Shown: positions 1 through 63,899, counted from the first letter of the stretch. The stretch is DNA of 64,000 bases from an uncultured virus (IMG/VR IMGVR_UViG_3300006116_000009) (IMGVR_UViG_3300006116_000009); one strand, 5' to 3'. The notes: generated from the letters alone by a model not told the origin. Program-made: numbers and translations.

Positions 1-23
1 TATCACCAGACCGTCTTAGTGAA

Positions 24-2462
24 ATGGGCAACGCACTTCACGATTTCCAAAATGACCCCACCCTTAGTTCCGGTGAAAAAGAATACGCCGACGCTATGGT
101 GGCAACCTTTGACGGGGCATTTCCCCAAACCGTAAAGAAAGACTCGTTCACCCCACCACAGAACGTCCAAGCCGCTGCTAAGAAAGCATTGAAGTGGATG
201 AAAGACGGCAAGGCAGGTGACGGTTTCACCCCAGTGGGGCGCAAACGTGCGTCAGACCTAGCCAACGGTCACCCCGTGTCTATGGACACCCTAAAGCGTA
301 TGAAGGCGTACTTTGACCGCCACCAGCCCGATAAGAAATCACCACATTGGAACGAACCTAGCCCAGGCAAAGTTGCGTGGTATGCGTGGGGTGGCGACGC
401 TGGCTATGCGTGGGCGAAGCACATGGTTGCTAGTGCTGAAAGGGTGCAGAAAAGCGACGTAGAGGGACACCCTTTTCATGGCAACCAGTGGACAGGTGGT
501 GAAGGTTCGGCAGAGGGCGCACTACTCACGGGCGACCAAGTGAAATCCGCCATTATGTCCCCGCAAGGCATTGACAAATTCAATAGCATTATGTCAAAGC
601 AAGGGTATCTAACCTACCCAGTAAATCACCCCCTTTACGGTGGATGTGGCGTGGTTATGAAGGCACTACAGAACATCTATCCCAACGGCAAGCCCGTTGC
701 TATTGGTGAACCGATTACGCCAGAAGAGGGCGAGGACTACCCACCCATCTTCGTTCAGCACTACGCACTACAAATCGGTGAAGATAAGTTTGTGGACGGC
801 GCTGGCGTTCGCTCCCTTGCTGAAATCGCAAAGGGAAACGTACTGGGCAAGTATTGGCAAGTCTTACCGGCGACACCAGACCTAATGGGCAGGTTCCAGT
901 CCATTGCTACCTGCACCGACCAAGAAGCGAAGGACTACGCCAACGTCTTGTTGGAAACGGCGAAATCAGGTATCACCAAGAAACAATCCATCTCCCAAGT
1001 CGCCAATCAACTTTGGAACACGTACGTAGTGAAATCACTGCATAAGGGCAAGAAGCCCACCGCCGAACAACTACGGGCGCAAAGTCAGGACGCTTACGAC
1101 AAAGGCGACGAAGTAGAAGGTGACCGACTGCGCTACCTTGCCATCAACGCACAGTTTGAAGAAGACCAAGCCAAAATCACCAAAGGCGACAAAACTGGAC
1201 ATACATTTCACGGAAACCAATGGACAGGTGGAATCGGTGGCGCTGAAGGCGTAAGTGAAGCACGAACGTCAAGTGCTTCGGGTGGAAAGCGCACCACTTC
1301 CGTTGCCGACCAACCGTTGCCACAAGGGTGGAAAATCCAAAGTAAAACTAGTAGCGACATTACGTTGGTTAGCGAAAAAGGCAACACCGCCTGGTTTGCC
1401 ACCCGTTCCCGTGGTTGGAAACCAGGCGAACGTATTTCCAATATGGTTCTACAGTCCATTGACAAATTTGCCACCGGAAAGATTGTGAACTTCATAGCGG
1501 AATCTGGTATCGGTGGTGGAACAGTTGCTTACGTACACCGTTTACGTCCCGACGTTATTGGTATGGGCAAGTACAGCGTTGTCAATGAATCATTGGTAAA
1601 TCGTGCGAAATTCTATGGCAATACAATTTCTACCGGCGGAGTAATACCGCACGATATAGCGGTTCAGTTGGCGTTTGAGCGACACGACGTAATGCCCCTC
1701 AACGCTGAAGAACTAGCCGCACAGCACAGTGTTTTCAGTTCGTATCGTCAAGAAACGAACTACATTGACTTTGCCATGGCGCACGAAATTGGACACAGCG
1801 AGTATTTCACTAACCAACGAAGCGTCAAAGACCTTCTTCCAATCCTTGCCGAACTTTCACCAGATAAGGGTGGAGACCCCGAAAATAACCCCCACAGCAT
1901 TGAGTATTGGAATAAGGCGTACAAGGACAACTGTATGAACGCCCAATACCAAATCCCAAGTCGCTATACGGGCATAACCGTACAAGACGGACTGAAAACA
2001 ACGGTTATTCCAAAAAGGGACTGGGGTCAATTCCTATACGACCAAGGACGCTCCCCCGACCCAGGTGCTATGCCTGCTTCAGCAAAAACACGGTTGTCGG
2101 CACTAGGTGTCACGGAATACGGACGTGAGGACTTTGCCGAAATGTACGCCGAGATGTATGCCGCTTACCAATCACCACGAACTACGGACATTCCATTGGC
2201 TCAGGCATTTGCCAAAACGTTTGGGTGGACTAGAAGTGACCTTACTAAATCTGCTATACTGGGGTTAGTGAAGTCTAACCTTATCCCACCAGCAAACAAC
2301 AGAGTCACCCCTGACGGCAAGGGTGGCTTCAACGTTGCCGAGCCTTATGTGGTTGATACGGTCAATGGTCCCGTCACCGTTATTGGTGAATACGTAATCG
2401 TCAACGGTAAGCAAATGTTGATTGAGGATTACAACAAAATGCCTGTAAACCCTGATAAGTAA
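24..2462 (+). CDS. Multi-domain (polyvalent-type) phage protein, probably head-associated, with C-terminal zincin-like metallopeptidase; likely 5'-truncated by the window edge
   Basis: Frame is open from position 3. Contains a PP..V...A..AL.W...G..VGR.RA..LA.G..S.DT.KRM..YF.RH...PSPG.VAW..WGGDAG domain of the kind seen next to phage head genes, two GH[PT]FHGNQWTGG motifs, and AHEIGH (HExxH) followed by EYG..DFAEMYAE. Confidence 0.65.
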   Translation: MGNALHDFQNDPTLSSGEKEYADAMVATFDGAFPQTVKKDSFTPPQNVQAAAKKALKWMKDGKAGDGFTPVGRKRASDLANGHPVSMDTLKRMKAYFDRHQPDKKSPHWNEPSPGKVAWYAWGGDAGYAWAKHMVASAERVQKSDVEGHPFHGNQWTGGEGSAEGALLTGDQVKSAIMSPQGIDKFNSIMSKQGYLTYPVNHPLYGGCGVVMKALQNIYPNGKPVAIGEPITPEEGEDYPPIFVQHYALQIGEDKFVDGAGVRSLAEIAKGNVLGKYWQVLPATPDLMGRFQSIATCTDQEAKDYANVLLETAKSGITKKQSISQVANQLWNTYVVKSLHKGKKPTAEQLRAQSQDAYDKGDEVEGDRLRYLAINAQFEEDQAKITKGDKTGHTFHGNQWTGGIGGAEGVSEARTSSASGGKRTTSVADQPLPQGWKIQSKTSSDITLVSEKGNTAWFATRSRGWKPGERISNMVLQSIDKFATGKIVNFIAESGIGGGTVAYVHRLRPDVIGMGKYSVVNESLVNRAKFYGNTISTGGVIPHDIAVQLAFERHDVMPLNAEELAAQHSVFSSYRQETNYIDFAMAHEIGHSEYFTNQRSVKDLLPILAELSPDKGGDPENNPHSIEYWNKAYKDNCMNAQYQIPSRYTGITVQDGLKTTVIPKRDWGQFLYDQGRSPDPGAMPASAKTRLSALGVTEYGREDFAEMYAEMYAAYQSPRTTDIPLAQAFAKTFGWTRSDLTKSAILGLVKSNLIPPANNRVTPDGKGGFNVAEPYVVDTVNGPVTVIGEYVIVNGKQMLIEDYNKMPVNPDK

Positions 2463-2480
2463 GGGTTTTAGCAAAGACAC

Positions 2481-2509
2481 TTGCCTTATCCGTCACATTC
2501 GGGTAAACT
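2481..2509 (+). promoter_or_regulatory. Putative sigma70-type promoter
   Basis: TTGCCT-N17-TAAACT in the intergenic gap before the 2615 ORF. Confidence 0.4.
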
Positions 2510-2614
2510 AGGTCAACCCCAATGGGAAACCAAAGGAGGCGTTGTGTCCAACAACCCCAATGCTGTACGCCGTGTTTTTAGCGGTGGTTCGTATTCGCCT
2601 ATCAAGGCAGGCTT

Positions 2615-3193: not shown

Positions 3194-4291
3194 GTGTCCA
3201 ACGCCAAAATACTCATAGGTAATGCCAACGTCAGGCTAAAGGAATTGCCCGACCAAAGCGTTCGTACCGTAATCACCTCACCGCCTTATTACGGGCTACG
3301 AGACTATGGAACAGGCGATTGGCAAGGTGGTGACCCTGACTGTACCCACCAGCGTGACAACAAGCGTGGCAAGTCCACCGAGACAGGTCACGCCAACGAA
3401 ATGCTTACCGTAGGCGACGCTATTTACAAAACCGTATGCCCACGTTGCGGTGCTATCCGTGAAGATGAACAAATGGGCTTGGAAGAAACACCAGAAGAAT
3501 TTGTCGAAGCCCTTGTTGTTTTATTCCGTGAAATACGCCGTGTGCTTACTGATGATGGAACAGTCTGGCTAAACATTGGTGATTCCTACGCTGGGTCGGG
3601 CAAAGGCAGAAATGGCGACGGCACGGTAAATGTTGACCCCGAAAGCAAGCAAGCCACAAGTCAGGGAACGTTGGAAGGCACGTTAGTGAAATCGGGCGTA
3701 GATTTGCCAGCCAAGAACATGATTGGTATTCCGTGGCGTTTGGCATTTGCCCTACAAGATGATGGCTGGATTTTGCGTCAGGACATTATCTGGGCAAAAC
3801 CAAATCCAATGCCCGAATCGGTTAGTGACCGTTGTACAAAATCGCACGAATACATCTTCCTGCTTTCTAAATCACCACGTTATTACTTTGACAACGAAGC
3901 AATCAAGGAACCAGCCCAAGATTGGGGAACCCGTGACCGCACCAACGGCAAGTACCACAACGAAGGTACGGGTCTAACACCACACAGCGGTCTAACCAAG
4001 TCCTACGAAACACGGAACAAGCGTGACGTATGGACTGTTTCCACCAAGCCGTACAAGGGGGCGCACTTTGCCACCTATCCCGAAGATTTGATTACCCCGT
4101 GTGTGTTGGCAGGTTCAGCAGAAGGCGATACCGTCCTTGACCCCTTTACAGGGTCTGGTACAACGGCGGTAGTTGCGCTTCGGTATGGTAGAAACTTTGT
4201 GGGGACAGAATTGAACCCCGAATACGCCAAACTTGCAGAAAGCAGGATTACTAGTGACGCACCCCTCTTCAACACAGTCGAACTTGGATAA
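3194..4291 (+). CDS. DNA amino-methyltransferase (N4-C/N6-A, beta class)
   Basis: TSPPY (motif IV) near the N-terminus, HFATYP, and VLDPFTGSGTT (motif I) near the C-terminus. Confidence 0.92.
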   Translation: MSNAKILIGNANVRLKELPDQSVRTVITSPPYYGLRDYGTGDWQGGDPDCTHQRDNKRGKSTETGHANEMLTVGDAIYKTVCPRCGAIREDEQMGLEETPEEFVEALVVLFREIRRVLTDDGTVWLNIGDSYAGSGKGRNGDGTVNVDPESKQATSQGTLEGTLVKSGVDLPAKNMIGIPWRLAFALQDDGWILRQDIIWAKPNPMPESVSDRCTKSHEYIFLLSKSPRYYFDNEAIKEPAQDWGTRDRTNGKYHNEGTGLTPHSGLTKSYETRNKRDVWTVSTKPYKGAHFATYPEDLITPCVLAGSAEGDTVLDPFTGSGTTAVVALRYGRNFVGTELNPEYAKLAESRITSDAPLFNTVELG

Positions 4292-4301
4292 GCACAAGCA
4301 G

Positions 4302-4517
4302 ATGAACTTTGCCGAATGGCTTACATACGGGCAATCCCTTGGATACGTTAGTGAAATCGTGTGTGACACGCACAATGGATACGAAATGTCGCCCACCGAA
4401 GTAGAACTTGTTGATGCTGGAAATGACATCTGTGTCCACGTCGTCCGTGTTGGTAACATTCAGGAGTGGGAAGCCGAGGCGCAATCCTATAAAGGAATGG
4501 ACGAACTGTGCGTTTAG
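4302..4517 (+). CDS. Hypothetical protein
   Basis: ATG 10 nt after the MTase stop; CDTH...CVH residues. Confidence 0.6.
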   Translation: MNFAEWLTYGQSLGYVSEIVCDTHNGYEMSPTEVELVDAGNDICVHVVRVGNIQEWEAEAQSYKGMDELCV

Positions 4518-4667
4518 TAGACATTTGGAACGGCAACGGGTATTACCTAAAGACCTATCAGGGAAATGACGGGTACTACCACACCGTCATCACCACGCCG
4601 GATTTCACTACCCAAGCCGAAGCGTCTAACTTCCAAACCAAGTTCATAGATTTCACTAAGGGTAATC

Positions 4668-5577: not shown

Positions 5578-5952
5578 ATGCCATACGAATTACCAGATGC
5601 CGAAATGAACGCCCTAGATTTCATCAGGTGGCATTGGAAAGAACTAAATTGCGCACCGTCCTATCGGGCGATTATGCAAGCCGTAGGGTACAAATCAACG
5701 TCGTCCGTCCACGTGATGCTGATGCGCCTGAAGCAAAAAGGGCTAATCACCCTTGGACCGAAAAACAAGAATGTTCAGTTAGTGAATACCGGCGACCCAC
5801 GAACGTGTGACCACGATTGGCGTGTTACCAAAATTGCGAACCCGTTGTTAATCCAATGTTCGTTCTGCAAGCACAAAACGGAAGTCGAATACGACCCACC
5901 AGCCGATGCCCCACTTACCAAGTTGCTAAAGTACACAGGGAATGTCGGCTAA
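5578..5952 (+). CDS. LexA-type winged-HTH DNA-binding protein with C-terminal Zn-ribbon-like segment
   Basis: LDFIR...PSYRAIMQAVGYKSTSSVHVMLMRLKQKGLI matches the LexA N-domain; no S24 peptidase domain; CDH...CSFC. Confidence 0.8.
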   Translation: MPYELPDAEMNALDFIRWHWKELNCAPSYRAIMQAVGYKSTSSVHVMLMRLKQKGLITLGPKNKNVQLVNTGDPRTCDHDWRVTKIANPLLIQCSFCKHKTEVEYDPPADAPLTKLLKYTGNVG

Positions 5953-9024: not shown

Positions 9025-9046
9025 TCAGAAAGGCTAGTGAAATAAA

Positions 9047-10802: not shown

Positions 10803-11289
10803 GGATATTTGGACTGACGGAACAACACCAGATTGGCACGACCCTACCAATCCGTGGAACGACCACCCATTTGTACGCACGGGTGGCGAACTAACTCGTG
10901 GTGAAAAGGCTGCGGATGCGGTACGAAACAAGATGGGTAGTTGGGGATTTGTCGGCACTTTCCTTACTTTTATGGTTATTTGGGCAGTGCTAAACGTTTA
11001 TTGGCTGAATAACAGGGGATTTGACCCCTACCCCTTCATCTTGCTCAACCTGTTTCTTTCTATGTTGGCTGGACTGCAAGGTGCAATTTTGTTGATTGCT
11101 GCCAAACGTGCTGATGCTGTATCTGCCGAACAAGCACTAGCCCACCTGAACCTATCCCGTGACAGTAGTGAAATACTGCAAAAGGTCGAACGAGAACTTG
11201 CCCGTAATACCAAACTGACGCACGATTTACACGCACTACACGCTGAATTGCGGAAGTTATTGGAAAACCCAAATAGTGTGAAAGAATAG
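10795..11289 (+). CDS. DUF1003-like membrane protein
   Basis: T.GE.AAD.V...GSW.F; FDPYPFILLNL.LS..A..Q..I. Confidence 0.85.
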   Translation: MSKDIWTDGTTPDWHDPTNPWNDHPFVRTGGELTRGEKAADAVRNKMGSWGFVGTFLTFMVIWAVLNVYWLNNRGFDPYPFILLNLFLSMLAGLQGAILLIAAKRADAVSAEQALAHLNLSRDSSEILQKVERELARNTKLTHDLHALHAELRKLLENPNSVKE

Positions 11290-12057: not shown

Positions 12058-15000
12058 ATGGCACGTACACCGTACACACTGAATAGTTATGTAGGCGAAC
12101 CATACGCCGCTGTACTAACAACGTCTATTGGGTCTGCCGACACTACTATTTCACTAACCTTCAACGAAGGTATTGGCTCGTGGACGGGATTGGGTGTTGA
12201 CGGTGGTTTCTACCTTGCCATTGACTACAACATGGTCAGCGAAGAACACATTTACGTTCCGGCAGGGTCATACGATTGGGCAAGTTCTACCGTTGTACTA
12301 AATGATGTTGTTCGTGGATACGACAATGGTGGAAATGGCGTTCCTCACGATGCAGGTGTAGCGGTTGTTCCAATTATCACCGCAACAGATACACGGGAAG
12401 CCAACTACGTGGTATCCCAAACCGTTGGTCAAATCCAAAACTACGGCGACCTTCTTATCGGGGCTAGTGAAAACACCCTCGAGGCGTTGCCAATCGGAAG
12501 CCCTAATCAAGTATTAGGTGTTAGCCCAGACGGTTCTACATTGGAATACCTGACTGTCTACGGTCAGCAGGGGCCACAGGGAAACGATGGTGCGCAAGGT
12601 AGTGCTGGAAGCCAAGGAAACGCTGGGGCGCAAGGTGCGCAAGGCGTACAAGGCATTCAAGGTTCTATCGGTGTCCAAGGAGTACAGGGTAATCAAGGGG
12701 TACAGGGAAACCAAGGAACTACCGGATTTCAAGGCGTACAAGGTGTTCAGGGTAGTGCTGGAAACAGCGGTTCGCAGGGTACACAGGGAGTACAGGGAAC
12801 GACTGGTAGCCAAGGTAATCAAGGCACTACAGGGGCGCAAGGCAATCAAGGTTCAGCAGGCAATCAGGGTAATCAAGGGACGCAAGGCTCGCAAGGTAAT
12901 CAGGGTACACAGGGTACTGCTGGAACCAACGGGTCACAGGGTGTTCAGGGTGTTCAGGGTGCCACCGGCGTACAGGGTACACAAGGTTTTCAGGGAAATC
13001 AAGGTGACCAAGGGGCGCAGGGTTACCAAGGCGTAACCGGAACAACTGGTAATCAGGGTTTTCAGGGCTTGCAGGGAAACCAAGGTTTCACCGGCGTACA
13101 AGGAAATCAAGGTTTCACTGGTGCGCAGGGGGTACAGGGTGTTCAGGGAAACACTGGTTCACAGGGTACTCAAGGAAATCAGGGTTTTCAGGGAACACAG
13201 GGTATACAAGGAACGCAAGGTGTACAGGGTGTACAAGGTGAAAAAAGTGCCGCCAACGCCCACGCAGCCGTAAGTGCCGTTTCCACCAACAACTTGCCAG
13301 CGACTTACGCAAACGGAAGCGCAGACGCAGAAAACGGAACGGGTGTTGGGGCAACCATTACCGCAAATGCCAATGGCGCACTCGGGGCTATTGACGGTGT
13401 AGCAATGTCCGTTGGTAGCCGTGTTCTTTTCACTGCACGAACCAACGCCATTGAAAATGGCATTTACACGGTAACAAGTGTTGGCTCACCAGGTACCAAG
13501 TACGTCTTTACCCGTGCCACCGACTACAACAACCACGTCACGGGTCAGGTAGAAAGTGGCGACTATGTGTTTTCTACTGGCGGAACACTTTACGCAGGAA
13601 CAACGTGGGTTCAATACAATGATGGTTCCAACCCTGACGGAACAATCCGCATTGGAACAGACCCCATCAATTTCACGCAAGCAGGCGGTGTTGGTGCGCA
13701 AGGCCCACAGGGTGCCACTGGTTCGCAGGGCGCTGGCGGTGTTATCAGCAACTACGGTTCGTTTTACTCGACGGTAACCCAGAACGCCACTACTGGTGGA
13801 GCCGCAATCCGTTTTGACACTACCAACGTCGCCAATGGCGTGACCCTTGTTAGCAATGGAACATACCTAACTCGTATTACTTTCCCCACAACGGGAACGT
13901 ACATGATTGACTTCTCTGGTCAGTTAGCGGTCACGGGTGGAGGAAACCGCACCGCCAACTTCTGGCTAGTTAAAAACGGAACTACCGCTGTGGCAACCGC
14001 CTACGACAATGTTGTTCAGAACAACTCCCCAGCACTTACCTCGTGGACGTACCAAGTAAATGCCACGGCTGGCGACTACTACGAACTGTTTTGGAACGGT
14101 GATACAACTAACCTTCAACTTCAGTTCAGCGCCGCTTCCGCCCCCGTGCCTTCCGTTCCCTCGGCGTTTGTTCGTGTCACTCAAGTCACCTATCAGGGCG
14201 CACAGGGAAATCAAGGGTATCAGGGTACACAAGGGGTTCAAGGGGTACAGGGTTATCAGGGAACCCAAGGAACTCAGGGAAATCAGGGCTATCAAGGCTA
14301 TCAAGGTATTCAGGGGCCATCAAATGGCACTGCTGGTGGCGACCTTAGCGGAAACTACCCTAACCCCACCGTTGCCAAAATACAAGGGGTTGCGGTTTCC
14401 AATGTTGCCCCCACGAGCAACCAAGTGCTTCGCTACAACTCGTCCACCAATGCGTGGACACCGGCAACGTCTACGCTTCTTATTCCAACCACCACCAAGA
14501 CGGCAAACTATTCGGCAATTCCAAATGATTATGTCGTTTGCAATCCCACGTCGGCTGGCATCACCATTTCACTACCGTCGGCTCCGGCAAACGGTTCAGT
14601 AGTTTCGGTATGCAACCTTTCTACCGCTACACAAACTGTCACAGTAACTCCAAGTGGTTCAGACGTTATTTCGGGCGGTAGTTCCACCCTTGCCTACGGG
14701 TTTTTCAACTCCCGTTCGTTTGTCTACGACGCAAATAACACCACATGGTTGCTCCAAGTAGACGAGTGGGGAACTACGGCTGGTGGCGACCTTACGGGGT
14801 CGTATCCAAATCCCACTGTTGGTGGAATACAAGGCTTCCCCGTAGCCAATACAACGCCTACAAACAATCAAGTGTTGCGCTACAGCACTACTACGAACCA
14901 ATGGTCGCCAGCAACCTCGACGCTTCTTGTTCCAACGGTCACTACCAACGTCAGTTACAATGCTTTACCAAATGACTACGTAGTATGCAACCCAACAACT

Positions 15001-17643
15001 ACGGGTATTACGATTTCACTACCCAGCGCACCGAGCAACGGGTCAGTTGTATCGGTTGCTGCCCTGTCTACGGCTACCTACCAGACAGTAATCAGCGCAT
15101 CAGGGTCAGACACCATTCAGGGTGGGTCAATTACTCTTGCTTCTGGTCTGTACAGTTCGGTGTCATTTGTCTACGACAAAAATGCCAATACGTGGCTGGT
15201 GCAATCACAAAAAGGAAATCAAGGCAATCAAGGTTTTCAGGGTTATCAGGGATACCAAGGTAATAACGGCACAAACGGTGCGCAGGGAAATCAGGGATAC
15301 CAAGGCGTACAGTCATCAGTAGCCGTAGGCACCGTTTCCACCACTACGTATGGCAACCCAGCATTAGTTACTAATACGGGTACTGCTGGTGCCGCAACTT
15401 TGAATTTCACCATTCCCCAAGGGCCACAGGGTGTTGCCGGAACAAATGGAACCAATGGTTCGCAAGGTAATCAAGGGTATCAAGGTGTGCAAGCATCGGT
15501 GGCTGTTGGTACGGTTTCTACCACATCATACGGAAACCCAGCCGTTGTCACAGATACAGGAACCGCAGGCGCAGGAGTACTAAATTTCACCTTGCCACAA
15601 GGGCCGCAGGGTGTCACTGGCACCGCCGGAACGCAAGGAAATCAGGGTTATCAGGGGGCTTCCTACGCCACCACATCTGTCACGTCGCTAACCATCGCCA
15701 CAGGTACGCAGACATTCACCGTAGGCACCAACCTTGCCTACACGGTTGGTCAGACAGTTCGCATATTCAACAGCCCCAACTACATGAGTGGCACTATCAC
15801 CGCTTACAACGCCAGCACGGGTGCTATGACGGTAAACATAACCGTCACGTCAGGTTCGGGAACGTTTGCTTCGTGGACGGTAAACCTAGACGGTTTGCAA
15901 GGCGTACAAGGGTCTACGGGTTCGCAAGGAAACCAAGGCTATCAGGGATATCAAGGCTATCAAGGTGCCGGTGTCACAGGTATTTCACCAGGCGCAATTA
16001 TCTACGGCAACGCATCGGGCAACTGGGTAGACACATCAACAGGTTCGGGCGGTGGTGCTGGTTCGGCTGGTCAGTTGCTTACATCATACGGAAACATTGC
16101 TAATGGTGGCCCCGAATGGGCTTCGTATGCAATTCACCGACCTGTCTCCGCAGTTACCACTACTAACGTTTCCGGTACGTATGTAGTTGGCGCAACGCTA
16201 ACAGTAGCCAGTGCCACCTATGCGTCAAACTCGGCTACGTATACCTACATCAATACAGGTGTCTTCGCAACTGCCGGTTCCCTTGTAACCATCACGGGTA
16301 TGTCCCCGACGCTACTAAATGGTACGTATGTAATTACTAGTGCCACCGCATCAACTTTCACCACATATTCAACCAGTGCTTCTAGTGGTAGTTCGACAAA
16401 CCCAGGTGTTGCCCAAATTGGAAACCTAACCCTTGACTATCCCCTTGCAACAGATATGTTCTTCGGGCCAGCCGGTACTTTTACTACTGATGGCTGTTCT
16501 GCTTCCCTCAACACACGATACTTGCTTACAGCACAAACTACCGCTACGCAAAATGGTATTTGGGTTGCCACACAGGTGTACACGGGTACGTCATCAACAG
16601 TCCCCGCTTCTAACGCATCGTGGTCTGCTGGAACCATTACGTTCGGCAATGCAGGAAACGTATTTGGAAACCTTGGTCTTTCTGTTGGTCAATACATTTC
16701 AGTAACTGGTGCCACGGTTACGGGATACAACGGCGTTTGGAAAATCGCCACCATATCGTCAGGAACCATAACTACCGCAGGTTTGGTGGCTAATCCTGGA
16801 ACGGCTAGTGGAACATTTGGAAACGTCAATGCGCCCGTAGTTTTCACCCGTGATAATGATGCCGACACAACAACCAAAATCTCATCTGCATTGGTTCAAT
16901 CACAACTTGGAACAACTTATGGCGGTTCTTCTTGGCAAATACCATTTTCCAGCGGTACTTTTGGAACAAGCAACATTTCGGCGTATCAAATCCTAAATAC
17001 CAACTCGTCGCTTTCTGCTACCAATAAATCATTCGGAAGTACTGGTTTTTACCTTTCTGGTAGTAGTGGAACTGTAAATGTTCTTGCAACAGGTTCTGTT
17101 GGTGGAACCCTGTACCTACCCACATTTGCTAGTGGTACAGATACCCTTGTTTCACTAGCCGTTTCCGCTACCCTTACAAACAAAACCCTTACGTCGCCTG
17201 TTCTAAACACACCTGTTGTAACAGGGCCATACGAAACCGTGGGCATTAGTGCAACAGCACTTAGTGGTTCAGTTGCGGCTTCTATTGCCATTGCCACCAA
17301 CTCGGTCTACTACTACACAGCAAACCCCACAGCAACTTGGGCATTGAACATTACAAACGCCCCTACGGTTACGGGGCAATCAGCAACGGTAGCCATCCTT
17401 GTAAACAATGGTGCAACAGCGTATCTACCAAGCAACATTACGGTCAATACCGTTCAGGCTGGTGCTTCATCTTCTGCATTGCCCGTGCAGGGAGCCACAA
17501 ACAACAACATCACGTCGTACTACCAAAATGCAACAGCGTGGTCAGCAGATGCTTCGACCCTTGATGTCTACACTATTACTGTTATCTGTACCAATGGGGC
17601 TACCCCTGCGTACACCTTACTTCTAGGATTGACCAAGTTCTAA
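12058..17643 (+). CDS. Collagen-like fibre protein (1861 aa)
   Basis: Long Gly-X-Gln triplet tracts separated by Thr/Ser-rich beta domains; R.L...T...NGIY...RATD fibre modules; duplicated AGGDL.G.YPNPTV module. Confidence 0.8.
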   Translation: MARTPYTLNSYVGEPYAAVLTTSIGSADTTISLTFNEGIGSWTGLGVDGGFYLAIDYNMVSEEHIYVPAGSYDWASSTVVLNDVVRGYDNGGNGVPHDAGVAVVPIITATDTREANYVVSQTVGQIQNYGDLLIGASENTLEALPIGSPNQVLGVSPDGSTLEYLTVYGQQGPQGNDGAQGSAGSQGNAGAQGAQGVQGIQGSIGVQGVQGNQGVQGNQGTTGFQGVQGVQGSAGNSGSQGTQGVQGTTGSQGNQGTTGAQGNQGSAGNQGNQGTQGSQGNQGTQGTAGTNGSQGVQGVQGATGVQGTQGFQGNQGDQGAQGYQGVTGTTGNQGFQGLQGNQGFTGVQGNQGFTGAQGVQGVQGNTGSQGTQGNQGFQGTQGIQGTQGVQGVQGEKSAANAHAAVSAVSTNNLPATYANGSADAENGTGVGATITANANGALGAIDGVAMSVGSRVLFTARTNAIENGIYTVTSVGSPGTKYVFTRATDYNNHVTGQVESGDYVFSTGGTLYAGTTWVQYNDGSNPDGTIRIGTDPINFTQAGGVGAQGPQGATGSQGAGGVISNYGSFYSTVTQNATTGGAAIRFDTTNVANGVTLVSNGTYLTRITFPTTGTYMIDFSGQLAVTGGGNRTANFWLVKNGTTAVATAYDNVVQNNSPALTSWTYQVNATAGDYYELFWNGDTTNLQLQFSAASAPVPSVPSAFVRVTQVTYQGAQGNQGYQGTQGVQGVQGYQGTQGTQGNQGYQGYQGIQGPSNGTAGGDLSGNYPNPTVAKIQGVAVSNVAPTSNQVLRYNSSTNAWTPATSTLLIPTTTKTANYSAIPNDYVVCNPTSAGITISLPSAPANGSVVSVCNLSTATQTVTVTPSGSDVISGGSSTLAYGFFNSRSFVYDANNTTWLLQVDEWGTTAGGDLTGSYPNPTVGGIQGFPVANTTPTNNQVLRYSTTTNQWSPATSTLLVPTVTTNVSYNALPNDYVVCNPTTTGITISLPSAPSNGSVVSVAALSTATYQTVISASGSDTIQGGSITLASGLYSSVSFVYDKNANTWLVQSQKGNQGNQGFQGYQGYQGNNGTNGAQGNQGYQGVQSSVAVGTVSTTTYGNPALVTNTGTAGAATLNFTIPQGPQGVAGTNGTNGSQGNQGYQGVQASVAVGTVSTTSYGNPAVVTDTGTAGAGVLNFTLPQGPQGVTGTAGTQGNQGYQGASYATTSVTSLTIATGTQTFTVGTNLAYTVGQTVRIFNSPNYMSGTITAYNASTGAMTVNITVTSGSGTFASWTVNLDGLQGVQGSTGSQGNQGYQGYQGYQGAGVTGISPGAIIYGNASGNWVDTSTGSGGGAGSAGQLLTSYGNIANGGPEWASYAIHRPVSAVTTTNVSGTYVVGATLTVASATYASNSATYTYINTGVFATAGSLVTITGMSPTLLNGTYVITSATASTFTTYSTSASSGSSTNPGVAQIGNLTLDYPLATDMFFGPAGTFTTDGCSASLNTRYLLTAQTTATQNGIWVATQVYTGTSSTVPASNASWSAGTITFGNAGNVFGNLGLSVGQYISVTGATVTGYNGVWKIATISSGTITTAGLVANPGTASGTFGNVNAPVVFTRDNDADTTTKISSALVQSQLGTTYGGSSWQIPFSSGTFGTSNISAYQILNTNSSLSATNKSFGSTGFYLSGSSGTVNVLATGSVGGTLYLPTFASGTDTLVSLAVSATLTNKTLTSPVLNTPVVTGPYETVGISATALSGSVAASIAIATNSVYYYTANPTATWALNITNAPTVTGQSATVAILVNNGATAYLPSNITVNTVQAGASSSALPVQGATNNNITSYYQNATAWSADASTLDVYTITVICTNGATPAYTLLLGLTKF
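12561..13239 (+). repeat. Collagen-like (Gly-X-Gln)n coding repeat
   Basis: Uninterrupted 9-nt periodic GGN-NNN-CAR-rich triplets; shorter tracts recur up to ~15970. Confidence 0.9.
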
Positions 17644-21834: not shown

Positions 21835-21842
21835 GTAGTGAA

Positions 21843-25910: not shown

Positions 25911-26013
25911 ATTTCACTAGCCCCCTACGGATAGCGATTTTCCAATTCTGGGGTACTATTTACCTAGATGCATGGGCGATAAACCTATGCTAATTCGCTA
26001 CTAAGGAGTCACA

Positions 26014-45717: not shown

Positions 45718-46696
45718 CTACAACCAACAGCCAGACCCAGGTGCGCCGCCACCGTTTGATTACCGTGACCTTGTAAATGCAATGGTCAATAACGGGCAAA
45801 TGGTTTTACCACCACAGGCAGTTGAGCGTCTTGGCATTATCGCCGGATATGACCCTACGTTCAATTTAGGAAAAACTGACCAAAACGGAACCGCACAATC
45901 CCCTTCATATTCTTTCACCTCAGCGGAAAATAACAACAACGCTTCCCTTGATTCCATTCCTTACCCAGCGGTAAGCGTGTTTCTTTCTGGTGATAGTTAC
46001 GCTATCCACGGGTGCCGATACGACAAATCGTATAAACCCCACATGGGTGAAGCGGTACGTTGCTTGGTGTACGGCACCGAAGTGTTTGTGGTTGGTGCCG
46101 CTGCTGGAAATGTGACTAATACCGTCACGGGTACAAAAGTAAATCCCGACGGTTCCACTAGCCCCATTACAACTGCCGTACCTATCGGCGGTGTTGTTTC
46201 CAATGAAGGTAAAAACGTTGGCAACGTCAATTTTGTATTTAATTCATCCCGTTTGCAATCGTCACCCAGCACCACAATTTTGCCAGCATCGCTTATTACA
46301 CAAATGCTTCCAAACCGTCATTACAGTATTTCAGTAAACGTTGTGTATTCCATTACTTGGCTACCAGTAGGGACAATTTCCACCTATGTGTACTTTGCAC
46401 TTATTGGCCCAAAGGGTGACATTCCCTTGAACAAAAATACATACACCACAATGCCAAATAGCACATACCCCGAAGTATTTAATGCCACGGTCAGCACATG
46501 GGACTCACCTAAAGGTGTTTTGAAAACTACAGAATGGGAATCTAAGTATCCCCATAATCAGTTTACGTGGCAGGTAAAAATGGTAGCGCATTGCGATGGT
46601 CTTTACGGCCCACTTGGCCCACCAGAAATTACTTTCACGGCAGGCAGTAGCCCTAATTTCACTATAAACATCACGGACAACGGCAACGTTTCATAA
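45704..46696 (+). CDS. Minor tail protein
   Basis: Y..SY.P..G..V..L..G....V.G OB-fold spike-like N-region; follows the hub gene. Confidence 0.55.
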   Translation: MQVSNYNQQPDPGAPPPFDYRDLVNAMVNNGQMVLPPQAVERLGIIAGYDPTFNLGKTDQNGTAQSPSYSFTSAENNNNASLDSIPYPAVSVFLSGDSYAIHGCRYDKSYKPHMGEAVRCLVYGTEVFVVGAAAGNVTNTVTGTKVNPDGSTSPITTAVPIGGVVSNEGKNVGNVNFVFNSSRLQSSPSTTILPASLITQMLPNRHYSISVNVVYSITWLPVGTISTYVYFALIGPKGDIPLNKNTYTTMPNSTYPEVFNATVSTWDSPKGVLKTTEWESKYPHNQFTWQVKMVAHCDGLYGPLGPPEITFTAGSSPNFTINITDNGNVS

Positions 46697-50887: not shown

Positions 50888-50997
50888 AGTTTTGGAATTT
50901 TATGGGCAAGGCATGGGGCGCATAGTGAAATTCCGTCCACCCGTACACCACTGAAGTGATGTATTGTCACTAATCCGTTTCGCTCTACAGGGGGGTA

Positions 50998-54071: not shown

Positions 54072-54614
54072 ATGACCAAACAAAAAACGTACTGCGCCGT
54101 AAACCTCCACGTTAGTGAAATCAAGCGAGGCATGACGGGTTTCGCCAAGACCGACGGAACAATGGGTGCGCTTATTCGCTTTGGTGAAAAGTTGCGTTGG
54201 AAAGTTGGAAAGTACAACCACTGCTTCACCGTTGTCACCGAAGGGTCAAACTATGACGAAATAATTATTGTCCAAGCGACAATGAAGGGCGTAATTACCT
54301 CCACTTTGGAAAGCCTTATCGCTTCGTCAGAAATCGTGTCTATGTACGACATTACCGACCTTGGTGGCGACCTCGAAAAAGCGGCGTGGTTTGCCGAGCA
54401 ACAAATTGGCGACCCCTATGGGCTTTTGTCCGACATTTGCATCGGTGTGGACATTATTTCACCACAGTGGTTTTTGGAAACTCGCCGTGCAGGTACGTGG
54501 ATTTGTTCAGCACTAGCCCACGAAGCAATGCGTTACGCCGGTGTGTACTACGACGTGCCTGACGTGTACATGGTTTCACCAACCAACTTGCAAATTTTGA
54601 TGAACGTTGCTTGA
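54072..54614 (+). CDS. Permuted papain-like (NlpC/P60 YiiX/YaeF-type) amidase
   Basis: IR...YNHC...A...GV...A..QIG.PY...ICSAL, with His before Cys. Confidence 0.75.
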   Translation: MTKQKTYCAVNLHVSEIKRGMTGFAKTDGTMGALIRFGEKLRWKVGKYNHCFTVVTEGSNYDEIIIVQATMKGVITSTLESLIASSEIVSMYDITDLGGDLEKAAWFAEQQIGDPYGLLSDICIGVDIISPQWFLETRRAGTWICSALAHEAMRYAGVYYDVPDVYMVSPTNLQILMNVA

Positions 54615-55249: not shown

Positions 55250-55329
55250 CGTTATGGCTAACAACCCCACTCCAATCCCAAGCGTTCCTCGAATTAAGTA
55301 TTAGTGAAATCTACTAGTAGCCTTATAGG

Positions 55330-55812
55330 GTGACCTGTATAGCCGCTTGGAAAGACCGTAAGCAAGTGTGGATGGCTGGGGACGGTGGCGCATTTGACGA
55401 CACCACGGTCATTATTTCGGCAGAACCAAAGGTTTGGAAATCCGATACAAGTTTGGTTGGCGTAGCCGGTTCGTTCCGAATAATGGACATTCTTCGGAAA
55501 AGCAATATTGGCGACCCGTACAAAATCCGTGATTTTCTTATTAGCAAGTCTAACGAAGCAATTTTCCCTACTGACTGGTCAGTGTTGGTAGCCAATAAAA
55601 CGGGCATTTACGAAATAGGTTCCGATTTTGGCGTAGTGAAATCCGCCGAGAACTATGGGGCTACGGGGGCTAGCGCACAGTCAGCACTAAGCGCATTGTT
55701 TGTATTGGAACGTAAAGACGTGACACCACAGCAACGTATGGAATTAGTGATGAAAGCAACGGGCTACCACACCACAAACTCACGCCCACCTTTTACAGTT
55801 ATTTCGCTATGA
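55330..55812 (+). CDS. Ntn-hydrolase, HslV/proteasome-beta-like peptidase
   Basis: N-terminal MTCIA, MAGD, PKV, GVAGS, Y.ATG. Confidence 0.7.
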   Translation: MTCIAAWKDRKQVWMAGDGGAFDDTTVIISAEPKVWKSDTSLVGVAGSFRIMDILRKSNIGDPYKIRDFLISKSNEAIFPTDWSVLVANKTGIYEIGSDFGVVKSAENYGATGASAQSALSALFVLERKDVTPQQRMELVMKATGYHTTNSRPPFTVISL

Positions 55813-56510
55813 AAGGCGTTTCTAACAACCCTGCTGGACGACCCGTTACGTTGCCAAAAATCCCTTGCAAAAACTGCGGGCAAATATTTCAGCAAAAACA
55901 ACACGACAGATTTTATTGTTCGTCTGCCTGTGGCAATGGCGGTAAATGGAGCCGATACCCCCACCCAAAAGGAATGACGGGGCATAAGCACACTGAAGAA
56001 AACAAAAAACTGTATGCCGAACACTCACGGCAAAGAATGGCAAATGACAAAAAATTCAGGGAAAAGTCCATTACCGCAATGCGGAAAGGACGTGAGGAAC
56101 AACTACGACTGGGCGGAAGTCCGACTAAGCATTTTACTAGGGGCAAGGGGGGGAAACGAGCCGACTTGAATAACCAATACTTTAGGTCATCTTGGGAAGC
56201 AAACTACGCAAGATGGTTAAATTATTTGATTGGTACGGGGGAAATAGAAAGTTGGCAATACGAACCAAAAACCTTTGAGTTTCCGACAGACGCAGGTGCA
56301 AAGTTTTACACGCCGGATTTCTTGGTGAAAAAAACAAACGAATATGAGTGGCACGAAGTCAAAGGGTGGCTTACGGAACAAGGCAAGGAAAAGTTAAAAA
56401 GATTTGCATTGTTCTACCCAAACGAAAAACTAATATTAATTGACCAACAGGCGTATAGTGAAATAAAACTGCAAGCCAAAGAAACGCTGGAAAATTGGGA
56501 AAAAAAATGA
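55809..56510 (+). CDS. PD-(D/E)XK endonuclease with Zn finger and NUMOD3-like motif (homing-endonuclease-like)
   Basis: CKNC...YCSSAC; GHKHTEE; FRSSWEANYAR...YEP...YTPDF...EVKGW; locally AT-rich. Confidence 0.75.
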   Translation: MKGVSNNPAGRPVTLPKIPCKNCGQIFQQKQHDRFYCSSACGNGGKWSRYPHPKGMTGHKHTEENKKLYAEHSRQRMANDKKFREKSITAMRKGREEQLRLGGSPTKHFTRGKGGKRADLNNQYFRSSWEANYARWLNYLIGTGEIESWQYEPKTFEFPTDAGAKFYTPDFLVKKTNEYEWHEVKGWLTEQGKEKLKRFALFYPNEKLILIDQQAYSEIKLQAKETLENWEKK

Positions 56511-56947: not shown

Positions 56948-57220
56948 ATGACCCCCAACGACGATTTCACTACCCCCCTCGACGCTCGCAAGGAAGTCGA
57001 AGCCGACTTTTCACCAGAAGTAGCATCGCTTCTTTCGCACATTCGTGACATCTGCCGTGAAATGCGCAAGCACGAACAGCAAGTCATTGAATTGGGTCGT
57101 GAACGTCGCCAGACCGTCACCCGACTTCGTGAAAAGGGTGTCACGTGGCGCAAGATTGCGGAGTGGGCTGAAACCACCGACCAAGCCTTGTACAAGCACC
57201 ACAACCGAGATACTAAGTAG
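56948..57220 (+). CDS. Small HTH DNA-binding protein
   Basis: LREKGVTWRKIAEWAETTDQALYK; AAGGAG SD. Confidence 0.75.
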   Translation: MTPNDDFTTPLDARKEVEADFSPEVASLLSHIRDICREMRKHEQQVIELGRERRQTVTRLREKGVTWRKIAEWAETTDQALYKHHNRDTK

Positions 57221-60772: not shown

Positions 60773-60997
60773 TTACTTACCGGAAATGCTTAGGGCGTAA
60801 GTCGTAGCCTGTTGCGCCCTAGCCTTTAGCAACGGGGCATCAGGACTACCATTCGCCTGTGACACGGCAAGTCGTTTCCAAAGTTCGCTGGCATCAGCAA
60901 GGGCTTTAGCAATACGGGCGTACTGCGAAGAAGCGTATTCTTCACCCTCAAAACGGTCAGTCAGCAGGGCGCTGGTAGTGAAATCAGGCGTTGGCAA
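60773..60997 (-). CDS. Small protein with F[ST]TxxL leader
   Basis: AGGAGG SD before TTG; MPTPDFTTSALL...IAKA. Confidence 0.65.
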   Translation of the reverse strand: MPTPDFTTSALLTDRFEGEEYASSQYARIAKALADASELWKRLAVSQANGSPDAPLLKARAQQATTYALSISGK

Positions 60998-61400
60998 CGG
61001 AGCCTCCTGTGGTCACACCCGTCACGGGGGTCGAGTCGTTCATCACCATAGCATTTGCCGATTGCGAAGCGTCAGCAGCAGCCTGAGTTGCCCCTCGAGC
61101 GTTCAGCCCGTCAGTTTTGGAATTCTCGGTTGCTGCGTGTTCGTGCAAGTCAGCAGCGTGGTTATTCATTTCGGCATACTTGGGGTTGGTCTTGGCAAAT
61201 GCTTGCGCCACCTTACGGTGTTCCTCCGCCAATCGCAAGTGCGTTTCTTTCCTAGCCTTCATGTCTTGTTTGCTAGAAATGTTGTGGGCATCAGTAGCCA
61301 ACAACGCCAACTTTTGCCCTTCAGCAGTGTGGCGTGGCAAGGCGTGGTTCTTTGGATACCGAGACTTACCCTTGAGTAATGCTTCGGTAGTGAAATCCAT
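60984..61400 (-). CDS. His/Ala-rich helical protein with leader
   Basis: MDFTTEALLKG; H..LA.EH...HAA.LH..AA. Confidence 0.75.
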   Translation of the reverse strand: MDFTTEALLKGKSRYPKNHALPRHTAEGQKLALLATDAHNISSKQDMKARKETHLRLAEEHRKVAQAFAKTNPKYAEMNNHAADLHEHAATENSKTDGLNARGATQAAADASQSANAMVMNDSTPVTGVTTGGSVANA

Positions 61401-62003: not shown

Positions 62004-62846
62004 TTAGTCAGTTCGCACTTGCTTTAGGGCTTCGTTCTTTGCCTTATCAGCCTGCTGTGACATTTCCAATGCGTTTTGTGATGCTTTTTTGTTATTTCCA
62101 TACGTAACGTCAGCCTGTGGTTTCCAACCACCCTCGACTTTGGAAGTGGAATAAGCGTTCTGGTCTGCGGCGTTCCCTGCGGTGAAATGGGCTTGTGCCG
62201 CTTGACGGTTGATAACGGCAGCGTTAGTTAGGGTGCGTGATAAATCATTTTCACCACCGCCATTATTGGCACGGGCAATAGACGCTTGTAGTTCTAGCCC
62301 TTCGGCAACACCACGATGTTCGTGTGCCAAAGTCCAATGGACACCAGCAATAGCCTTTAGGTTGGGGTGTGGATTGGTCACGGGGGTGTCGTAGTACCCA
62401 AGTACCTGTTCGGCATCAGGGGCAAGGTCAGGGTCAATAAATTGCCCCTTGTTGATTACTGCTTGGTTGGCGGCATTCGTAAAATTGGCAGCCCGTGACG
62501 AATACTGTTGGGCTTTTTGCGAAGTTAGGGCATTGGAAGCAATTGAATTACCCGTGACGGGGCGAATGGCGTTTATTTCACTAGCCGCATCGTCGTGGGC
62601 TTGCGCTGCTTCCAAATGTGCTTGTTTAGCCTTACCAGACGGTAACTTGCTAGCAATAGCCCTATGTTCACTAGCAATCTTGCGGTGTGTTTTCACCGTG
62701 TTGGGCAAATCATCTTCCAGCGTTTCCCGAAGCCCATTGGCTTGACCAGAAAGGGCTGCTGACTGTTGGTTTATCCCAACGCCTAGTTTGGAAACGGGAT
62801 ACCGTGACAGCGACTTTAGAAGTTCTGAGGTAGAAAACCCAGACAT
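62004..62846 (-). CDS. His/Ala-rich helical protein with leader and two internal repeats
   Basis: MSGFSTSELLKS; H..[IL]A.EHR..A...AAQAH twice, separated by INKG. Confidence 0.8.
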   Translation of the reverse strand: MSGFSTSELLKSLSRYPVSKLGVGINQQSAALSGQANGLRETLEDDLPNTVKTHRKIASEHRAIASKLPSGKAKQAHLEAAQAHDDAASEINAIRPVTGNSIASNALTSQKAQQYSSRAANFTNAANQAVINKGQFIDPDLAPDAEQVLGYYDTPVTNPHPNLKAIAGVHWTLAHEHRGVAEGLELQASIARANNGGGENDLSRTLTNAAVINRQAAQAHFTAGNAADQNAYSTSKVEGGWKPQADVTYGNNKKASQNALEMSQQADKAKNEALKQVRTD

Positions 62847-63295
62847 TAGTACTTCTTACTGCGATACGCCCCTACGCCACCAGCGCCAGCGTCAGGAATA
62901 CCGTTTTCGTGGTCGTACTTTTCTGCTTCCCACGTTGCCTTAGCAGCCTTACGTGGCGTAAAGTGGGTCACTTTTTCAGCAGGGGTAGTCTTTCGCTCCC
63001 CAGCACCACCAGATGAAATAAAGTGTTCGAGAAATGCCTTGCGATGCAGTGCTTCACCAACTTTGTCGCCACGAACACGGGCTGCGACTTCGGCGGATTT
63101 GTGATGTGACAGCATGATGTCATGCTGACGTTCAAATTCGCCAGCCTGCTTAGCGTTAAAGTTCGGCATTGAGTCTTTGTCATCAGAAATACTTTGCGCC
63201 TTGTCAGTCCACTGATTTCCCTCAAATGGGTGACCGACCACAGCCCCCTTTGTCAAGGGATATAAAAGACCGTTGGTAGAAAAGTCATGCGTCAT
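62846..63295 (-). CDS. GHPFxGNQ-family protein
   Basis: MTHDFSTNGLLYPLTKG-AVVGHPFEGNQWT. Confidence 0.8.
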   Translation of the reverse strand: MTHDFSTNGLLYPLTKGAVVGHPFEGNQWTDKAQSISDDKDSMPNFNAKQAGEFERQHDIMLSHHKSAEVAARVRGDKVGEALHRKAFLEHFISSGGAGERKTTPAEKVTHFTPRKAAKATWEAEKYDHENGIPDAGAGGVGAYRSKKY

Positions 63296-63350
63296 AAAAC
63301 AAGGATACCAACGAATACCAAAATCCTAAATGTGGTTTATTATGGGCGGT

Positions 63351-63884
63351 ATGACTAGCAACCCTTTCTCCACCGAAAACCTTGTTCCTACTTGGGCGGT
63401 CGCTAGTGAAATCTTGAAAGGCGACACACAAGGACACCCATTTCGAGGCAATCAGTTCACCCACGCCGATGCCATTGACATGGAAAAGGACGCTCAGCAG
63501 TCGCTTGACGAGGGACACAAGAACTACGTAAGCGCCGACGATTACGAGGGTGAAGATGACACCACAGTCCCCTACGGCGACACGTATGTTTCTCTCGGCG
63601 GAGGCGGCGCATGGGAGGGTCACAACGACGATGTAGCCGAAAACGCTAGAAAATTTGAGGACGCCGCCGGTGGTTTTAGGGACGCTGCTGAAATTCACTT
63701 GGGGTTGGCTTCTCGAGCGACGAACGCCAATGACGCTATTTTCCACACCAACGAAGCGCACCGCCTAAATCGAGCCGCTGATAGTGCGGAAGAATACATG
63801 GACGACCAAAATGACCAAAAAGTTTCTGACCCAGATGAACCTACTTTTGACCCACCAGATTACGACTACGACCCCTACTACTAA
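63351..63884 (+). CDS. GHPFxGNQ-family acidic protein
   Basis: MTSNPFSTENLVPTW...ILKG-DTQGHPFRGNQFT. Confidence 0.8.
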   Translation: MTSNPFSTENLVPTWAVASEILKGDTQGHPFRGNQFTHADAIDMEKDAQQSLDEGHKNYVSADDYEGEDDTTVPYGDTYVSLGGGGAWEGHNDDVAENARKFEDAAGGFRDAAEIHLGLASRATNANDAIFHTNEAHRLNRAADSAEEYMDDQNDQKVSDPDEPTFDPPDYDYDPYY

Positions 63885-63899
63885 GTAGTGAAATAACTA

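Follow-up and report, generated by a model that had tools for sequence, protein, structure and literature searches.

Short words that a genome maintains at a hundred-fold excess have repeatedly led to the machinery that reads them: Chi to the control of RecBCD, uptake sequences to ComP, KOPS (FtsK orienting polar sequences) to FtsK, and stoperators to their repressor. The DNA uptake sequences (DUS) of the Neisseriaceae, with their 'dialects', and the uptake signal sequences (USS) of the Pasteurellaceae are asymmetric words of 9–12 bp that are tens to hundreds of times over-represented. They lie equally on both strands and in several reading frames, are denser between genes, and occur as lineage dialects with a constant core. 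Their excess is thought to come from many small advantages or from drive. Chi sites, recognized by RecBCD or AddAB, are 5–8 nt long, enriched in the host chromosome, skewed with replication and different in sequence from one bacterial taxon to another; linear DNA that carries many of them is shielded from degradation, each copy adding benefit. The stoperators of Cluster A mycobacteriophages (13–14 bp) are mostly intergenic, oriented with transcription and tied to the repressor in temperate phages. T5-like and some Pseudomonas phages carry site-specific nicks that are few and on one strand only. Here we report on the 9-base word TAGTGAAAT, which is strongly over-represented in a stretch of 64,000 nucleotides from an uncultured freshwater virus (IMG/VR IMGVR_UViG_3300006116_000009). 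This whole stretch is referred to below as the window.

Like DUS and USS, the phage word is short, strongly over-represented, equal on both strands and present as lineage dialects. In contrast to them, it sits in phage genomes and not in the bacterial genomes sampled, does not form inverted terminator pairs, and implicates no uptake machinery. It shares with Chi a short asymmetric sequence, but lacks both an enrichment in the genomes searched for a host and an intrinsic strand preference. The resemblance to Cluster A stoperators lies in the dozens of asymmetric copies across a probably actinobacterial phage genome, with a sequence varying between relatives; however, the phage word has 9–10 bp, lies mostly in genes, is direction-free and saturates the codon positions where it is permitted. 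As in T5-like phages, a short consensus is scattered along a large siphovirus genome with terminal repeats, but on both strands, unlike nick sites of the T5 type. Unlike oriented words of the KOPS or SRS (SpoIIIE recognition sequence) type, it has no strand polarity once permitted positions are counted.

Results

Over-representation of the word in the window

An exact recount gives 34 copies of TAGTGAAAT (plus strand, 18; minus strand, 16), or 0.53 per kb. The chance expectation is 0.32, the largest value in 100 dinucleotide-preserving shuffles being 3, and the word ranks first of all 9-mers in an unbiased k-mer survey of the window. The sequence-only reading that had drawn attention to the word listed 32 copies. 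All 32 coordinates were correct, but the list was incomplete, the copies at 30258 (plus strand) and 56964 (minus strand) having escaped it. The many variants it had mentioned are real and specific: TGGTGAAAT (17 copies), TACTGAAAT (12), TAGTGAAAA (8) and TGCTGAAAT (7) are frequent in the window, and the remaining single-base variants have mostly 0–3 copies each. With 75 occurrences where 4.5 are expected, the family pattern YRSTGAAAT reaches 1.17 per kb; 70 of the 75 start with T. The flanks add little: G is weakly preferred at −1 and −2, and 18 copies are followed by C and 11 by A. Over 218 gaps in the seven contigs that carry the word in this form, spacing is near random (mean gap 2,096 bp, coefficient of variation 0.92). 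A single pair among these gaps is no more than 30 bp apart, in direct orientation, and no inverted pair lies within 30 bp in the same contigs. A scan of the viral collection for convergent pairs returned 59 loci; 0 of the 59 is enriched, none has at least 6 copies, and none belongs to this phage family.

One explanation for such an excess is a by-product of codon usage, amino-acid content or restriction-site avoidance, the word being part of a 'safe vocabulary'. The strong short-word biases of the genome, with a five-fold excess of TTGGAA and several absent 4-mers, would fit this. However, synonymous codon shuffling within genes leaves 12.15 ± 1.3 copies in total and whole-codon permutation 10.5 (200 shuffles each). 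The 10 non-coding or boundary copies were held fixed, and about 2 and about 0.5 coding copies, respectively, are thus to be compared with the 24 observed. A Markov model built on the 4-mers of the window itself expects 0.97 copies and one built on its 5-mers 2.1; word tables computed after masking of the 34 sites give 1.0 (5-mers), 2.7 (6-mers) and 4.0 (7-mers) copies against 34. AGT, the serine codon of the xSEI frame, is ordinary in the window (260 of 1,649 serine codons), and the excess is found on both strands. The 'safe vocabulary' is refuted by the codon shuffles, the Markov expectations and the masked tables, and we give it next to no credence. The excess thus survives codon-preserving shuffling, the check proposed together with the original observation. 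The coding copies use four frames, sense xVKx and xSEI and antisense ISL and xFTx, in agreement with the frames named beforehand (VVKS/LVKS and xSEI in sense; ISL and xFTx in antisense). Sense frame 0 cannot be used because it reads TAG TGA. The claim of a DNA-level signal is backed by these shuffles and tables and by the saturation counts given below.

Dialects of one word family in related phages

IMG/VR contains many relatives of the phage, and the recurrence of the word in them was borne out by counts at the capsid locus and over whole contigs. Among 80 loci around the capsid gene, 15 have at least 5 exact copies and 41 have none. The contigs designated G002, G003, G004, G005 and G006 carry 27, 54, 35, 22 and 18 exact copies, with 0 in each for the reversed-word control. 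Relatives carry forms of YRS-TGAAAT that begin with TAG, as in TAGTGAAAT, or with CAG, TGC or TGG. The CAG form, CAGTGAAAT(C), is preferred in G007 and G016, and CAG and TGG are preferred in G009, G012 and G013. The TGC form, TGCTGAAAT, is preferred in G010 and G015, and TAG and TGC are both preferred in G003 and G006. G014 (67.6 kb), whose capsid is 85% identical, is motif-free: the whole family matches it once, the control twice.

Orthologous sites, coding and intergenic, carry the form of their own lineage. Just ahead of the gene at 21843, the window and G003 have TAGTGAAATG at the junction where G007 has CAGTGAAATG. Position 54113 has TAG in the window, TGG (TGGTGAAAT) in G009, G012 and G013, CAG (CAGTGAAAT) in G007 and G016, and CAACGAAAT in the motif-free G014. 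The window and G002 are 82.6% identical over 45.6 kb. Of their 23 aligned sites, 14 are the same in both, against a background of 32.6% (p = 0.005), and 3 further ones have moved to other preferred forms (TGG or TAC).

Saturation of permitted positions and altered proteins

A site counted as permitted if some codon choice for its peptide would spell the word, whatever the frame or strand. TAGTGAAAT occupies 24 of the 44 permitted positions in the window; sense positions contribute 10 of 20 and antisense positions 14 of 24. In the relatives, the preferred form occupies (sense, antisense) 8/17 and 12/16 positions in G002, 14/25 and 13/26 in G004, and 26/40 and 17/35 in G003; for the CAG form the values are 20/33 and 18/38 in G007 and 13/24 and 11/19 in G009. 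Overall, the preferred form fills 36–80% of the permitted positions in every motif-bearing genome compared, and at least 40% for all forms save TGC antisense in G015. Non-preferred forms occupy 0–10%. The CAG form CAGTGAAAT, one base off TAGTGAAAT, is found at 0 of 31 permitted positions in the window, and the TAG form at 3 of 40 in G009 and 0 of 15 in G010. All four forms are at 0–1 of about 25 positions in the motif-free G014.

The peptides that permit the word are themselves in excess. The window has 44 of them against 17.1 ± 4.5 when residues are shuffled within each protein, i.e. 2.5 times the expectation, and the corresponding numbers are 75 against 27.5 in G003 and 71 against 31.8 in G007. 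There is no excess in G014 (23 against 18.7), and in each genome the excess is confined to the preferred forms. The pressure has therefore altered protein sequences as well as codon choice.

Inside genes, 10 copies are in sense and 14 in antisense orientation. The other 10 of the 34 are non-coding or at gene boundaries, in non-coding DNA that makes up 5.8% of the window (p = 5e-5), which corresponds to a density about five times higher than in coding DNA. The copy at 18608, which had earlier been counted as intergenic, is within a gene. One of the 10, at 56964, sits in a 90-aa open reading frame (ORF) that is absent from the gene calls.

A replication-linked strand polarity was considered and rejected. 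For the 34 exact copies it is not significant (26/34, P = 0.096). The 75 family sites do show a regional polarity (57/75, P = 0.001), which is gone when measured against permitted positions (10/18 sense versus 24/46 antisense in the 12–47 kb region, B) and results from where antisense-compatible peptides lie. A wrap-around explanation of the polarity was abandoned, the window being about half of a linear genome of about 121 kb.

The form follows restriction avoidance

The palindromes AGCT, CGCG and GATC are wholly absent from the window, as they are from G002, G004 and G005. GAG/CTC is at 0.27 of expectation in the window and AGAG at 0.05. Relatives lack other sets of 4-base palindromes, up to eight in G009, G012 and G014. 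AGCT, CATG and GATC are purged in G007 and G016; AATT, AGCT, ATAT, CCGG, CGCG, GATC, TATA and TTAA in G009 and G012; and the same set minus CCGG in G013. The same purged set goes with the same motif form, even between distant phages such as the window and G004, most proteins of which are 30–80% identical. Conversely, the closest relatives of the window after G002, namely G009, G012 and G013, differ from it in both purged set and form. The motif form thus follows the restriction-avoidance profile, a proxy for the host, and not phage phylogeny or any phage protein compared. Since it follows the purged set and no protein compared tracks it, the form tracks something host-linked or an unseen determinant, for example in the other half of the genome.

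Two proteins encoded in the window were compared as candidate readers. The LexA-domain protein has a homolog in the contigs of all 14 relatives compared, including the motif-free G014, and its similarity follows phage phylogeny, not motif form. The N6/N4 DNA methyltransferase has no full-length homolog in G005, G008, G009, G012, G013, G014 or G015, with weak partial hits in G005 and G015. Two tandem paralogs of it are present in G003 (38502–40563) and G004 (320–2588), and in each of these contigs two word families are equally strong. The window and G002 share 99.7% identity in the methyltransferase, against 84–93% in neighbouring genes, which suggests recent exchange or strong constraint.

Search for the word in bacterial genomes

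The sequence-only reading had also proposed a host-recognized signal; a host genome that also carries such a signal did not turn up in the bacterial genomes searched. In the sample of about 1,150 actinobacterial genomes, none has a phage-like density. The highest exact counts are 60 in 1.8 Mb among 401 genomes of the class of the best SSB match (reversed-word control 17), 31 in 2.4 Mb among 201 genomes of a second family (control 10), and 46 in 1.3 Mb among 151 genomes of a family with genomes of about 1.3 Mb (control 19). The maximum over these roughly 750 genomes is about 0.035 per kb, versus 0.53 in the window. With the family pattern, the highest density among 401 genomes of the class Actinomycetes is about 0.2 per kb, versus 1.17 in the window, and the five genomes behind the SSB matches have no phage-like density. 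These scans are samples that partly overlap, and the true host may lie outside them. They include eleven unpublished genomes, on which the negative result partly rests: G682, G792, G426, G455, G449, G462, G451, G443, G434 and G723 for the family pattern, and G887 for the second family.

The phage and its likely hosts

Family searches mark the window as part of a siphovirus. Besides the major capsid gene (9047–10045) they identify tail tube proteins, a chaperone and a tape measure protein. Replication and recombination functions are represented by a replication initiator, a helicase loader, a Sak4-like ATPase, a RecB/Cas4-like nuclease, a Mu Gam-like protein and RusA, and an SNF2 helicase interrupted by a LAGLIDADG-bearing insert accompanies the N6/N4 DNA methyltransferase. 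The Pfam scan covered 48 window proteins. No integrase was found among the proteins scanned, the window being about half of the genome. This fraction is deduced from the relative G007, a 121,340-bp contig that has terminal repeats and a rating of complete, and from a 62-kb relative rated 50% complete.

A megablast search with 25 kb gave no nucleotide match to isolated phages, and the identity of the capsid protein to its counterparts in Arthrobacter and Microbacterium phages does not exceed 51.5%. Scanning bacterial genome contigs for the capsid gave no match. G007 has genes for two WhiB-like proteins, the SSB of the family finds its best bacterial matches (48% identity) in metagenome-assembled genomes of Acidimicrobiia, and the Atlas neighbour cluster of a glycosyltransferase from the window is mostly from Actinomycetota. 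From these three indications the hosts are probably freshwater Actinomycetota. Of the 24 public freshwater runs in which the phage was found, 13 contain half or more of the sampled words.

Sites, other words and neighbouring genes

All copies of the word in the window are given in Table 1, with the candidate genes.

Table 1. Exact copies of TAGTGAAAT and candidate reader genes in the window.
Feature	Position	Strand	Context
TAGTGAAAT	17..25	+	final AT belongs to the ATG that starts gene 24–2462
TAGTGAAAT	1027..1035	+	sense frame 1 (VVKS), gene 24–2462; kept in G002
TAGTGAAAT	1804..1812	-	antisense (YFTN), gene 24–2462
TAGTGAAAT	3684..3692	+	sense (LVKS), in N6/N4 methyltransferase gene; kept in G002
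TAGTGAAAT	4349..4357	+	sense frame 2 (VSEI); kept in G002
TAGTGAAAT	4602..4610	-	antisense (DFTT); kept in G002
TAGTGAAAT	4650..4658	-	antisense (DFTK); TGGTGAAAT at G002 position
TAGTGAAAT	9035..9043	+	intergenic, ends 3 bases 5' of major capsid ATG; kept in G002
TAGTGAAAT	11166..11174	+	sense (SSEI), DUF1003 gene; ortholog TAGTGAAAT in G004/G007/G016, TGCTGAAAT in G009
TAGTGAAAT	12148..12156	-	antisense (ISL), 1861-aa tail fibre gene; kept in G002
TAGTGAAAT	14566..14574	-	antisense (ISL), tail fibre gene; kept in G002
TAGTGAAAT	15013..15021	-	antisense (ISL), tail fibre gene; kept in G002
TAGTGAAAT	18608..18616	-	antisense (ISL), codons 3–5 of gene 18602–19846; TACTGAAAT in G002, CACTGAAAT in G013
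TAGTGAAAT	21836..21844	+	between genes, overlaps ATG at 21843
TAGTGAAAT	25911..25919	-	intergenic, adjoins stop of gene 23754–25910; kept in G002
TAGTGAAAT	27395..27403	-	intergenic, hairpin loop then T run, upstream of tape measure gene; kept in G002
TAGTGAAAT	30258..30266	+	sense (GSEI), tape measure gene; missed earlier; TACTGAAAT in G002
TAGTGAAAT	36249..36257	-	antisense (YFTT), 4415-aa ORF
TAGTGAAAT	37182..37190	-	antisense (DFTT), 4415-aa ORF
TAGTGAAAT	42284..42292	-	antisense (ISL), 4415-aa ORF
TAGTGAAAT	43784..43792	-	antisense (ISL), 4415-aa ORF
TAGTGAAAT	45621..45629	+	sense (DSEI), toward end of gene 43975–45717
TAGTGAAAT	46656..46664	-	antisense (NFTI), toward end of gene ending 46696
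TAGTGAAAT	50923..50931	+	intergenic, upstream of replication initiator gene 50998–51867; kept in G002
TAGTGAAAT	54113..54121	+	sense (VSEI); orthologs switch form
TAGTGAAAT	55302..55310	+	intergenic; kept in G002
TAGTGAAAT	55634..55642	+	sense (VVKS); TGGTGAAAT in G012, TAGTGAAAT in G007/G016
TAGTGAAAT	56456..56464	+	sense (YSEI), toward end of gene 55809–56510
TAGTGAAAT	56964..56972	-	antisense (DDFTT) in 90-aa ORF, if a gene; missed earlier; kept in G002
TAGTGAAAT	60976..60984	+	between genes (60772 / 60984)
TAGTGAAAT	61388..61396	+	antisense (DFTT), minus-strand gene 60984–61400
TAGTGAAAT	62575..62583	-	sense (ASEI), minus-strand gene 62004–62846; CAGTGAAAT in G012
TAGTGAAAT	63404..63412	+	ambiguous gene call: minus ORF 63285–63761 or plus ORF 63330–63884
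TAGTGAAAT	63886..63894	+	intergenic, after stop of plus ORF 63330–63884, 5 bases 5' of ATG
N6/N4 DNA methyltransferase gene, candidate reader	3194..4291	+	Pfam PF01555, E = 1e-52
LexA-DNA-binding-domain (winged helix) protein gene, candidate of the sequence-only reading	5578..5952	+	Pfam PF01726 (LexA_DNA_bind), E = 1.7e-11
90-aa ORF, second candidate of that reading	56948..57220	+	ORF and translation only

At 27360–27420, upstream of the tape measure gene, a hairpin is followed by a T run; the word lies in the loop, and the stem draws on its TAGT/ACTA part. A general association with hairpins of the type TAGT...ACTA was rejected: it holds for 4 of 34 copies against 1.2 expected in the window, and is at expectation in 8 other genome and word sets. 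A role in ribosome binding was also discarded, the upstream regions carrying ordinary purine-rich sites.

Besides the TGAAAT family, other words are over-represented. TGGTGGAAA has 19 copies in the window and 47 in G007, 38 of the latter on the gene strand, and is biased to the sense strand. Words of the xTTTGGAA type are enriched between genes too. GTTTTGGAA has 47 copies in G003 and AGTTTGGAA has 30 in G010. G008 (L137–L142) has a longer repeat containing AACCAGGCCCGCCC, with about 15 occurrences, always on one strand. Words of the CAAGGTAATCA type occur 10–11 times in L007 and G010, nearly all on one strand, and GGCAACCAAGGC and AATCAAGGC words are present in L012–L014; these three may represent a different, oriented motif system. 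A literature search by word strings and by terms gave nothing relevant among the matches listed, and the matches to word strings look like chance sequence strings such as primers.

The SNF2-type helicase (57287–60772; 1161 aa) has a weak, sub-threshold HARP match, and its G007 homolog has 983 aa. Its LAGLIDADG-domain insert is probably an intein. Directly after the tape measure gene lies a 4,415-aa ORF (30725–43972) with no PHROG match; its counterparts in the relatives are shorter and align poorly.

Discussion

We tentatively favour, with a confidence that falls somewhat short of even, the view that TAGTGAAAT is a direction-free recognition word of duplex DNA that is kept by selection. It would be the local form of a 9–10-bp word for double-stranded DNA, with the consensus YRS-TGAAAT-(C/A), that siphoviruses of about 120 kb, probably infecting freshwater Actinomycetota, may keep at near-saturating density. 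We infer that a sequence-specific protein reads the word on duplex DNA regardless of its direction. Every copy would bring a small independent benefit, as part of a signal that marks or protects the genome under very heavy restriction pressure. The word would then be placed by selection at all sites that the proteins tolerate, even at the cost of bent protein sequences, and the preference of the reader at the first three bases may have shifted between lineages, with the sites following. We favour a selected word because the sites are conserved above background and re-tuned in place, alongside a very strong selection against restriction sites.

Several observations weigh against this view. Different forms of the word coexist in one genome with the TGGTGGAAA and xTTTGGAA families, which a single reader would not easily explain. 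For every protein of the window region and of G003, similarity within the TAG-form phages is no higher than among the others, the window covering only about half of the phage genome, and the motif-free G014 keeps nearly all conserved proteins of the window region. A form that follows a host proxy fits a reader encoded by the host at least as well as one encoded by the phage. Moreover, a purely mechanistic drive would give the same saturation, the same non-coding excess and the same random spacing without any benefit.

Such a molecular drive without function is unlikely in our estimation, but it is a contender to be taken seriously. A sequence-specific repair or conversion system, of the phage or of the host, would resolve near-cognate mismatches toward the word during recombination, like very-short-patch repair or the drive proposed for uptake sequences, and the word would spread to every tolerated position whether helpful to the phage or not. 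With about half of the permitted positions filled in both orientations, this explains saturation as well as selection does. The bending of proteins toward more permitted positions, the roughly five-fold higher density where coding constraint is absent and the random spacing would also be expected from it, as would the absence of the word from a close relative (G014), the several word families in one genome, and the lack of a phage regulator that tracks the form. However, the 48 window proteins scanned with Pfam include no Vsr-type or mismatch-specific nuclease family, the one-base neighbours of the word are not depleted, and conservation above background fits selection equally well. We know of no precedent for conversion drive in phages. 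A quite unlikely explanation, in our view, is a Chi-like attenuator recognized by a nuclease-helicase of the host, of the RecBCD, AddAB or AdnAB type. After a restriction cut, the nearest correctly oriented copy would stop degradation and promote recombinational rescue, and dense copies in both orientations would therefore pay off. The extreme restriction pressure seen in the purged palindromes, the equal saturation in both orientations, the random spacing (the benefit would be additive) and the form that follows the avoidance profile rather than phage phylogeny are all in line with this, as are phage genes related to DNA ends, i.e. those for the Mu Gam-like protein and the RecB/Cas4-like nuclease. 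Against it, none of the sampled bacterial genomes is enriched, although the host may be unsampled, 9–10 bp exceeds the known Chi sites (5–8 nt), and several forms are found within one phage.

The word could also be what a phage DNA methyltransferase, a different modifying enzyme or a nickase acts on, and mark positions that are modified or nicked in virion DNA. This would agree with the methyltransferase gene of the window, with the tandem copies in G003 and G004, each with two strong word families, and with a genome of about 121 kb with terminal repeats, which recalls the T5-like phages, whose DNA is nicked. We nevertheless regard it as improbable: no full-length homolog of this methyltransferase is seen in the motif-bearing G008 (91% complete), G009, G012, G013 and G015, there is no obvious reason for modification targets to be enriched, and known phage nick sites are one-stranded, whereas the word is on both strands. 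Less probable still is a network of the stoperator type, in which the copies are docking sites for a phage repressor that blocks transcription genome-wide, as the sequence-only reading had suggested for the LexA-like or a helix-turn-helix protein. An asymmetric word with many copies per genome in an actinobacterial phage, a winged-helix protein encoded in the window and several copies adjoining gene starts are the features that recall such a network. It is contradicted by the absence of orientation with transcription (10 sense versus 14 antisense copies, at saturations of 10/20 versus 14/24), by the random spacing, by the location of 24 of the 34 copies within genes, and by the length of 9 bp, shorter than the 13–14 bp of stoperators. 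In addition, no integrase is among the proteins scanned from this half of the genome, and the winged-helix protein is also encoded by the motif-free G014.

These phages could possibly, though we consider it doubtful, mark their own DNA in a way not described before, by a lineage-tunable word of 9–10 bp that fills about half of the permissible positions on both strands and reshapes proteins. It would be read by a sparing system of the host or the phage, and its first three bases would be re-tuned in an arms race beside the purging of restriction sites; or else the word would represent the first sequence-specific conversion drive in phage genomes. The kind of footprint that led to RecBCD control, ComP, FtsK and the stoperator repressor is now found in phages without a cultivated member, seen repeatedly across at least 13 freshwater metagenome runs. 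Three of its properties are unusual: a lack of direction, a saturation of permitted codon positions that distorts proteins, and first three bases that differ between close relatives in step with the restriction-avoidance profile. The word provides a concrete handle on a putative DNA reader of host or phage origin, and its form is a marker, available from sequence alone, that may sort these phages by host. This phage family constitutes a natural system to tell selection from biased conversion.

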